Origin: Escherichia phage NJ01
Reading direction: 5' to 3' (one strand)
Sequence record: NC_018835.1
Length of the DNA: 64,000 nt
Every line of letters begins with the position of its first letter. Position 1 is the first letter of the stretch. Below, in pieces: positions 38,894 through 39,457 of the stretch. The notes beneath the pieces were generated by a model that did no database searches, was not told the origin of the DNA, and saw only the letters and a list, made by a program, of their open reading frames with translations. The translations under genes were made by a program, and so were the position numbers.

Positions 38894-39457
38894 TTAGTAA
38901 GACACATCGCCACTTGAGTGGGACATGTTGCTCTTGACGAAGTAGCAATACTTGCCAAGACCTTCATTAATTTCTTGAAGCATACTCTGATCAACTGGAT
39001 AAGTGGCTAAATCACCATCAAACTCATCCATCTTCTCAATAATACACATCAAGGTCATGCACATATCAGAGAGCATACCGTCCATATCTAGGTCAGCATT
39101 ACCCTCTGAGAACCAAGCATGGGAGAGATAATTGGCTGCTGTGGCGTCCACTTTAACACAGTGGTAACGCATACGTTCAGCAATACGATCTCCTACTTGT
39201 CGTGCGTAATCTTCCAGCTCATCAAACATACCATGAACACCCTGAAATCCTGCACCAGAGACGTTCCAATGGTAGTTTTTAGCTTTGATATGCAAGAGTT
39301 CCATGTTAGCTTGTAAGCAGCTCAGGATGTGTTCTAGGCTGTTTCCACTAATCATACCCTGCATTGTTTCAAGGCGAGAGATTGAAAGCTCGGACCGATC
39401 TAACATATTGTATTCGACACGACCAATCTCGGGTAAGTCAAAGACATTCTTATGCAT
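38894..39457 (-). CDS. Dps/ferritin-like protein
   Basis: Dps-like helix pattern NYHWNVSGAGFQGVHGMFDELEDYARQVGDRIAERM; start uncertain (ATG overlapping upstream stop chosen). Confidence 0.6.
   Translation of the reverse strand: MHKNVFDLPEIGRVEYNMLDRSELSISRLETMQGMISGNSLEHILSCLQANMELLHIKAKNYHWNVSGAGFQGVHGMFDELEDYARQVGDRIAERMRYHCVKVDATAANYLSHAWFSEGNADLDMDGMLSDMCMTLMCIIEKMDEFDGDLATYPVDQSMLQEINEGLGKYCYFVKSNMSHSSGDVSY

Follow-up and report, generated by a model that had tools for sequence, protein, structure and literature searches.

The closest described relative of the gene treated here is gene 67 of Escherichia phage phiEco32 (phi32_67, YP_001671812.1), the product of which carries the RefSeq name "DNA binding protein; member of the Dps family". 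The orthologue in phage SU10, CDS67, was described as containing a DPS domain, and CDS67, the thioredoxin CDS65 and CDS68 were among only eight middle genes common to the five C3 podophages then known (PMC4281155). A homologue has also been reported from phage Privateer, in a paper that points to the Kuravirus homologues of its Dps-family protein (PMC7881722), and the mass spectrometry carried out on that phage hints that some Dps travels with the virion. The proteins of the other C3 podophages (Privateer/3H10_20, SE131/7-11, GAP52 and the Aeromonas phages LAh/4_4572) belong to the PHROG 3636 clade as well, with identities of 31–45%. They have the same module context and the same partner family, phrog_10984, as in Kuravirus, but they are shorter (146–156 aa) and without the long Kuravirus N-terminal extension, and some of them have short basic N-termini.

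Further away, phage-borne Dps-family genes have been described in gut phages of the "Gratiaviridae" and "Flandersviridae" and in Lactobacillus phages, where they were read as oxidative-stress auxiliary genes; these belong to unrelated phage lineages with anaerobic hosts, in which the gene often lies beside one for a Mn-catalase (PMC8008677). Benler and others stated in 2021 that phage Dps-like enzymes had previously been observed only in seven Lactobacillus phages (PMC8008677), a statement that overlooks the phiEco32 group.

The cellular members of the family, represented by those of E. coli, M. smegmatis (Dps1 and Dps2), B. anthracis (Dlp-2), B. subtilis (MrgA) and Kineococcus, share with the phage protein the four-helix bundle with its BC helix, as well as the ferroxidase-centre residues, including the neighbouring Trp. 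The phage protein can be superposed on them with TM scores of 0.75–0.90 and rmsd values of 1.3–2.8 Å over 134–147 residues, although the identity is only about 22–27%. Unlike the cellular proteins, it has a conserved acidic N-terminal extension of about 40 residues, is without a basic tail and is rich in Met and Cys; and while cellular Dps is controlled by OxyR and RpoS, the phage gene lies under a phage-sigma promoter.

The gene described here is found in a stretch of 64,000 nucleotides from Escherichia phage NJ01 (NC_018835.1), which is referred to as the window. The amino-acid identity of its product to phiEco32 gp67 is 97.9%, both genes being 564 nt long, and the neighbours of gp67 are placed as in the window, with gp68 upstream and gp66 and the thioredoxin gp65 downstream; the downstream hairpin region is also the same in both phages, bar one extra A just after the stop. 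No substantive difference separates the window gene from phiEco32 gp67 and its orthologues, SU10 CDS67 among them, and it is best regarded as another isolate. The 6-kb stretch around it shows 97.5% nucleotide identity to its closest match, Escherichia phage 172-1, and is 86–97% identical to dozens of other Kuravirus/Gordonclarkvirinae phages. Because gp67 is so annotated in RefSeq and was treated in the papers on SU10 (2014) and Privateer (2021), the identification is not new: the Dps identity of the gene is correct, yet it had already been annotated and published descriptively. As a discovery the gene therefore matters little, having been assigned to the Dps family already in the phiEco32 genome record and taken up in at least two papers.

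Gene and start codon

The coordinates proposed in the earlier note, 38894–39457, for which it named no strand, coincide exactly with one open reading frame on the minus strand. This frame is the gene for a Dps-family mini-ferritin, the orthologue of phiEco32 gp67; it begins with ATG at 39457, its stop codon ends at 38894, and it encodes a protein of 187 aa and 21.3 kDa. A Shine-Dalgarno sequence, GGAG, can be read from the sequence at 39467–39470 on the same strand, 9 nt 5' of the ATG and within the 3' end of the gp68 gene, and the ATG itself overlaps the stop of that upstream frame (39450–39779) inside ATGCATAA. A longer product of 203 aa, starting from a TTG at 39505, was considered and is unlikely. 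All homologues begin MH(N/K)N.FDLP and phiEco32 gp67 is annotated with the identical 564-nt extent, both of which place the start at the GGAG-preceded ATG and not at the TTG.

Family assignment and fold

In a Pfam search the protein matches PF00210 (Ferritin) with 31.1 bits, above the gathering score of 24.5 (E 2.5e-7), over residues 55–108 only, which correspond to helices A and B, and the match to PHROG 3636 extends over residues 35–180 with an E value of 2.6e-55. A phmmer search against the PDB returned 36 solved chains at E ≤ 0.01, nearly all of them named Dps or by a synonym of the Dps family; the best of these matches has an E value of 2.6e-9, and at the top stand M. smegmatis Dps2, B. 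subtilis MrgA and B. anthracis Dlp-2 (about 1e-9).

An exhaustive search of 1.84 billion cluster representatives gave 13 matches below 1e-10, which make up a small phage-type clade; 616 matches were found at E ≤ 0.001, and beyond the phage-type clade they merge into general Dps at about 30% identity. The nearest distant relatives (P0026–P0037) consist of a "putative DPS protein" of Salmonella phage pSal-SNUABM-01 and, for the rest, of proteins from metagenomic contigs, and no cellular donor lineage was identified among them. The protein scores 34.5 bits against the NCBIfam Dps equivalog NF006975, which has a cut-off of 114, and 32.2 bits against the DpsA model NF041388, which has a cut-off of 170. 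Scores so far under the equivalog cut-offs point to a divergent, phage-specific clade and not to an orthologue of host Dps, and together with an identity of 39% over 41 residues to the host protein they argue for an old phage lineage with no recent capture from the host.

The AlphaFold2 model, which is of a monomer and was built on 26 sequences, has a mean pLDDT of 81.6, with the core mostly above 85, and places helices at residues 41–65 (A), 72–98 (B), 107–112 (BC), 125–150 (C) and 154–176 (D). It thus predicts a ferritin-like four-helix bundle with a short extra BC helix in the long loop between B and C, the helix pattern of Dps. When the model was compared with the PDB by Foldseek, the top 50 matches were all Dps or Dps-like chains, with target-normalised TM scores of 0.7–0.9 and an rmsd of 1.3–2.6 Å in the best superpositions. 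The bundle is preceded by an N-terminal extension of the Kuravirus type (residues 1–44, about 40 residues), in which M1, R28, L29 and M32 are invariant or nearly so and a helix at 18–37 is predicted with low confidence. There are 15 Met and 5 Cys in the protein, where E. coli Dps has 4 Met and no Cys, and it is the C-terminal half that is unusually rich in them.

Maxi-ferritins and bacterioferritins are marked by a di-iron site within the subunit (paired E...ExxH), a fifth C-terminal helix and assembly into 24-mers. No ExxH motif occurs in the sequence of the phage protein, and the fifth helix is absent from the model, which ends after helix D in a disordered tail. The best structural and sequence matches are Dps, not ferritin or bacterioferritin, and the protein does not fit that class.

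Ferroxidase site and selection

The ferroxidase centre of Dps is formed between subunits, with H51 and H63 coming from one E. coli Dps subunit and D78 and E82 from the other. By BLASTP alignment to E. coli K-12 Dps (from NC_000913.3), residues K60, H63, W64, H75, D79, D90 and E94 of the phage protein correspond to K48, H51, W52, H63, D67, D78 and E82, the ferroxidase-centre residues of the E. coli protein. All four ligands (H63, H75, D90 and E94) are therefore present, together with K60, W64 and D79. These residues are invariant in 26 of 26 homologues, down to 48% identity, and in a MAFFT alignment the H, H, D and E columns are also kept in the homologues of Salmonella phage SE131, Proteus phage 3H10_20 and Aeromonas phage 4_4572. 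Compared with its counterparts in phiEco32 and KBNP1711, the gene has pairwise dN/dS values of 0.055 and 0.058, and the comparison of those two phages with each other gives 0.068; judged by these ratios, the gene is under strong purifying selection.

The reading as a phage-encoded Dps/ferritin-like protein, which the earlier note had made from a helix pattern, is thus upheld by the profile matches, including PF00210 above its gathering score and PHROG 3636, by the sequence matches in the PDB, by the modelled fold and by the whole of the Foldseek top 50. A ferritin-like fold and the ferroxidase-site ligands, the two features on which that reading had been made to depend, are both there. It is almost certain that 38894–39457 encodes a member of the Dps family whose ferroxidase site looks functional.

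Transcription unit shared with gp68

Upstream of the Dps gene lies a gp68-like gene (39450–39779, minus strand; 109 aa), which belongs to phrog_10984 and to no Pfam family. An overlap of 8 nt joins its stop to the Dps start and makes translational coupling likely. The AlphaFold2 model of gp68 (pLDDT 68.5) is a small SH3/Tudor-like beta-barrel, for which Foldseek found generic SH3/Tudor/KOW/PWWP-like barrels only, at E ≥ 0.014, with no significant match in the PDB. Members of phrog_10984 stand immediately 5' of Dps in Kuravirus, Privateervirus and Lahexavirus, where the two genes abut or overlap; Proteus phage 3H10_20 and Aeromonas phage 4_4572 are examples. In Salmonella phage SE131 the gp68 homologue adjoins the thioredoxin gene.

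The 72-nt gap upstream of gp68 contains AAATGTATA (39819–39827, minus strand), an exact match to tAATGTAtA, the promoter consensus of gp36, the phage sigma factor of phiEco32. In the aligned upstream stretch there are two substitutions with respect to phiEco32, none of them within the motif, and gene 68 belongs to the six genes of phiEco32 for which a promoter dependent on gp36 has been located by experiment (PMC8948821). When one mismatch is allowed, the motif shows no enrichment across the window (39 found, 39 expected), and weight was therefore placed only on exact intergenic matches and on the published mapping of gene 68. A scan for sigma-70 promoters between 36000 and 42000 found 8 sites, fewer than the 14.5 in shuffled sequence, and is uninformative.

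Past the end of the Dps gene, a stem-loop of 11 pairs (38858–38886, minus strand) begins 8 nt after the stop and is followed by AACTTATTTAT. Its folding energy of −15.9 kcal/mol is not unusual in comparison with shuffled sequence (z −1.5), and its T-tract is a weak one; the structure is conserved in phiEco32. It is possible that it acts as a weak terminator or as an RNA-stabilising hairpin. The most economical picture is that of genes 68 and 67 as one unit transcribed under the phage sigma factor, for which the promoter has support in the literature and in which placing the 3' end at the hairpin is conjecture.

Genomic neighbourhood

The Dps gene sits inside a module of middle genes for nucleotide metabolism and replication (PhoH, ThyX, thioredoxin, dCTP deaminase, polymerase). 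On its downstream side lie, all on the minus strand, two paralogous membrane ORFs of about 60 aa (38458–38832), a thioredoxin gene (37995–38270), ThyX (37117–37773), a stand-alone Nlig-Ia domain (36251–36574) and PhoH (35138–35875). Upstream of gp68, on the same strand, come three paralogous ORFs of about 65–69 aa (39852–40467), the dCTP deaminase (40671–41204) and, from 41214 onwards, the nucleotidyltransferase, exonuclease and primase-helicase genes. The association of Dps with dCTP deaminase, thioredoxin, ThyX, PhoH and DNA polymerase is syntenic in four phage genera, and the Dps genes of SE131, Proteus phage 3H10_20 and Aeromonas phage 4_4572 lie among these same genes.

The earlier note had named an adjacent thioredoxin and the amide-ligase cluster as context for Dps, and this claim held in part. 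The thioredoxin, an orthologue of phiEco32 gp65 (Pfam PF00085, E 2e-13; active site CAPC), is encoded 624 bp downstream of Dps on the same strand, with the two small membrane-protein ORFs between them; its start at 38270 follows the phiEco32 annotation (276 nt) and the protein sequence MSKVIKF.... Thioredoxin and Dps are co-conserved in all C3-morphotype podophages, according to PMC4281155 and to genome comparison. The thioredoxin gene is a co-conserved neighbour that provides context, and at most a putative functional partner. The amidoligase cluster (GATase/Amidoligase_2/COOH-NH2_lig, about 47890–53497) is not adjacent. It lies about 8.4 kb from Dps, past the dCTP deaminase, nucleotidyltransferase, exonuclease, primase-helicase and GGACT genes, and a link between the two was rejected, as no evidence connecting them was found.

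Proposed role

It had also been suggested that the phage, through this protein, manipulates the redox or iron state of the host or protects DNA, which is a reasonable inference. More specifically, the protein probably shields replicating phage DNA from the damage caused by iron and peroxide. By analogy with cellular Dps, it would assemble into a dodecameric shell that oxidises Fe(II) with H2O2 (or O2) at its twofold interfaces and stores the Fe(III) inside. Both Fenton reactants would in this way be removed while the phage genome is replicated and packaged. Given the acidic character of the Kuravirus protein and its want of a Lys/Arg-rich tail, the protection would be mainly chemical, by removal of iron and peroxide, and not a physical coating of DNA, unless gp68 or the conserved N-terminal extension supplies targeting.

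A phage copy would have a purpose of its own in the infected cell. In phiEco32, gp79 inhibits sigma-70 transcription (PMC8948821), and we propose that the phage carries a Dps gene because, after this shut-off, the cell could not induce its own; the copy under the phage sigma factor would then replace the OxyR- and RpoS-dependent host dps. The argument from host shut-off does not extend to phage 7-11, which is without gp79 and does not shut off its host (PMC8948821), while its relative SE131 carries Dps.

The SU10 orthologue is made during infection, as mass spectrometry identified CDS67 from 6 peptides that cover 35.8% of its sequence (PMC4281155). In the literature searched, no report was found in which a phage Dps from the C3-podophage clade had been put to a biochemical or genetic test. 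Taken as a whole, the mechanistic account, which joins the dodecamer, the removal of iron and peroxide and the replacement of an uninducible host dps, is considered moderately probable.

Alternative readings

The protection so described is chemical. A physical one may also be imagined, in which the protein binds and compacts DNA, coating or condensing the phage genome or riding in the prolate head, with iron chemistry secondary; most database records do label the gene "DNA binding protein". The DNA-binding Dps proteins, such as E. coli Dps and M. smegmatis Dps1, contact DNA through a basic tail, and cellular Dps proteins without basic tails, for example that of Listeria innocua, are not known to bind it. 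The Lys/Arg-rich N- or C-terminal tail of the DNA-binding subclass is absent from the Kuravirus protein, which is acidic (pI 4.73) and net-negative in both tails, with 4 K/R against 7 D/E in residues 1–44 and no K/R in residues 177–187. The label is for these reasons doubtful for the Kuravirus version, the sequence of which does not support it. The homologues of SE131 and the Proteus phage are different in this respect, as they have short Arg/Lys-rich N-termini (MLGARPKRP... and MARDIIRSRPSLRR...), of the type that mediates DNA binding in cellular Dps, and the SH3/Tudor/KOW-like fold of gp68, although the match is weak, is one that often binds nucleic acids.

The same question can be put to the virion data. 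The Privateer homologue was found by mass spectrometry in phage taken through CsCl step and equilibrium gradients (PMC7881722), a finding that may indicate a part in the virion structure or an association with DNA, and not a role confined to the cytoplasm. However, if the dodecamer is stable and perhaps made dense by a load of iron, it could band together with phage in CsCl as a mere contaminant. The study of the SU10 virion by cryo-EM and mass spectrometry names gp20–24 as internal proteins and does not mention gp67/Dps (PMC9509320), and the SU10 sample in which CDS67 was detected had been purified by PEG precipitation only, and DNA polymerase, PhoH and thioredoxin were present in it as well. 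A primarily DNA-binding or DNA-compacting function is judged unlikely.

Iron chemistry could, on the other hand, serve enzymes and not DNA, the protein acting as an iron buffer or donor that regulates the supply of Fe(II) or shields the enzymes of dNTP synthesis that are sensitive to oxygen and peroxide (ribonucleotide reductases, the chemistry of ThyX). Dps is always found among nucleotide-metabolism genes, in the window ThyX, dCTP deaminase and thioredoxin; the anaerobic ribonucleotide reductase genes NrdD/NrdG are next to it in Aeromonas phage 4_4572, a small ORF annotated as "ribonucleotide reductase" is directly downstream in Proteus phage 3H10_20, and the ORF downstream in SE131 has a weak match resembling the N-terminus of NrdD. 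Such synteny is weak evidence, however, because the middle-gene clusters of phages mix replication and metabolism anyway, and no ribonucleotide reductase is encoded within the annotated stretch of the Kuravirus window. Furthermore, we know of no Dps shown to be a specific iron chaperone for ribonucleotide reductase. This role is held to be slightly less likely again than the binding of DNA.

A more elaborate proposal builds on the pairing with gp68, in which gp68 and Dps would form a dedicated two-gene module, driven by phage sigma and common to all prolate C3 podophages, with gp68 or the acidic N-terminal extension guiding the tail-less dodecamer to the procapsid or to phage DNA under replication or packaging, and with some of it borne in the virion to guard the densely packed genome or the DNA as it enters the cell. 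If true, this would be a virus-specific and hitherto undemonstrated use of the mini-ferritin cage, but it is put forward as a long shot.

The protein might also be directed at the host, starving it of iron, blunting abortive infection linked to reactive oxygen species, or forming mixed oligomers that disturb the nucleoid or the host Dps. An extra surface for interactions is suggested by the N-terminal extension of 40 residues, which is conserved and non-canonical, and Gordonclarkvirinae have been reported as highly resistant to the defence systems tested (PMC11990801), which is circumstantial. The gene, however, belongs to the middle replication module under phage sigma and not with the early host-takeover genes; hetero-oligomers are unlikely, as only the ferroxidase helices align with E. 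coli Dps (39% identity over 41 residues), and no direct evidence was found for this role, which is given very little credence. Finally, the "integrase" label carried in GenBank by KBNP1711 ECBP3_0069, IME267 and many others, its sole support being the product names in deposited records, is as good as certainly a propagated annotation error, given the Dps four-helix bundle fold, the lytic nature of these phages and a Pfam scan at E ≤ 1 that gives Ferritin alone and no integrase, recombinase or rve domain.

Significance

What remains new at this locus is the conserved pairing of gp68 and Dps behind a phage-sigma promoter and the acidic Kuravirus extension, to which the report of virion association in Privateer may be added. 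The correction of names has a practical side, since an integrase call implies a temperate lifestyle and the wrong GenBank label could mislead the safety screens applied to therapeutic phages. The Dps clade is universal in a group of therapeutically relevant phages, Kuravirus and its relatives, where it combines strong purifying selection with a dedicated phage-sigma promoter, and it could inform how lytic phages manage iron and peroxide stress after they have shut off the transcription of their host.

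Small genes adjoining the Dps gene

The gp68 protein, encoded immediately upstream of the Dps gene (window 39450-39779, minus strand), belongs to phrog_10984, a conserved family of ~95-109 aa with no Pfam assignment. In three phage genera a member of this family abuts or overlaps the start of Dps, and in a fourth genus a member adjoins thioredoxin. Other members are located at 4639-4923 of the Proteus phage 3H10_20 locus (L004), 4681-4962 of the Aeromonas phage 4_4572 locus (L005) and 3385-3651 of the Salmonella phage SE131 locus (L003). The family is predicted by structural modelling to adopt a small SH3/Tudor-like beta-barrel (pLDDT 68.5), and a comparison of the predicted gp68 fold with the PDB returned no significant match.

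The interval that separates gp68 from the dCTP deaminase gene holds a tandem array of three paralogous ORFs (39852-40061, 40061-40270 and 40270-40467, all minus). Each is 65-69 aa long and abuts its neighbour, and all match phrog_4939 with E about 1e-28. Two further tandem paralogues of ~60 aa, hydrophobic (membrane-like) and both assigned to phrog_9296, are found between the Dps and thioredoxin genes (38458-38643 and 38653-38832, minus), whereas only one ORF, gp66, is annotated in this interval of phiEco32.

In SE131 and 3H10_20, an ORF of ~99 aa lies directly 3' of Dps (L003 5411-5710 and L004 5398-5694, respectively). The SE131 product shows weak similarity to the NrdD N-terminus (phrog_487, E 1.3e-4); its Proteus counterpart is annotated as "ribonucleotide reductase". 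In these phages the protein may be an ATP-cone-like regulator tied to Dps.

Thioredoxin and ligase-related genes

The phage thioredoxin (37995-38270, minus) carries the active-site motif CAPC in place of the canonical CGPC. Its start was placed by ORF finding at a TTG codon at 38321; the phiEco32 annotation, together with an MSKVIKF beginning, suggests 38270. A 107-aa ORF at 36251-36574 (minus) consists solely of domain Ia, the part of NAD-dependent DNA ligases that binds NAD+ (Pfam Nlig-Ia, E 2.7e-35). It is called "DNA ligase" in phiEco32 despite lacking the adenylation and OB domains, and the protein may be a modulator of host LigA instead of a ligase.

The amide-ligase cluster, which the earlier note had named together with Dps, is not adjacent to it, and occupies ~47890-53497 (minus). 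It comprises a GATase-like gene (47890-49581), an Amidoligase_2 gene (50000-51103), a phiEco32-type COOH-NH2 ligase gene (51727-52533), all minus, and several ORFs without a Pfam family; a gamma-glutamyl cyclotransferase-like (GGACT) gene lies nearby (45129-45548, minus).

Promoter elements of the phage sigma factor

The promoter element of the phiEco32 sigma factor gp36, (T/A)AATGTATA, occurs in exact copies at 2047-2055, 13650-13658, 18878-18886 and 28419-28427 on the plus strand, and at 28347-28355, 35118-35126 and 39819-39827 on the minus strand, the last being upstream of gp68. Several copies are intergenic and precede ORFs. The oppositely oriented pair at about 28.35-28.43 kb apparently lies at the border between the late (plus-strand) and middle (minus-strand) gene blocks.

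Annotation of Dps orthologues as integrase

In many deposited Kuravirus-like GenBank genomes the Dps orthologue is named "integrase" or "putative integrase", as exemplified by ECBP3_0069 of KBNP1711 (KF981730.1; L006 1501-2067) and by phages IME267, XT73, DE5 and IMEP8. This identity was rejected as a propagated error, the integrase domain being absent. Such mislabelling could make lytic Kuravirus-like phages look temperate in the safety screening of therapeutic phages.
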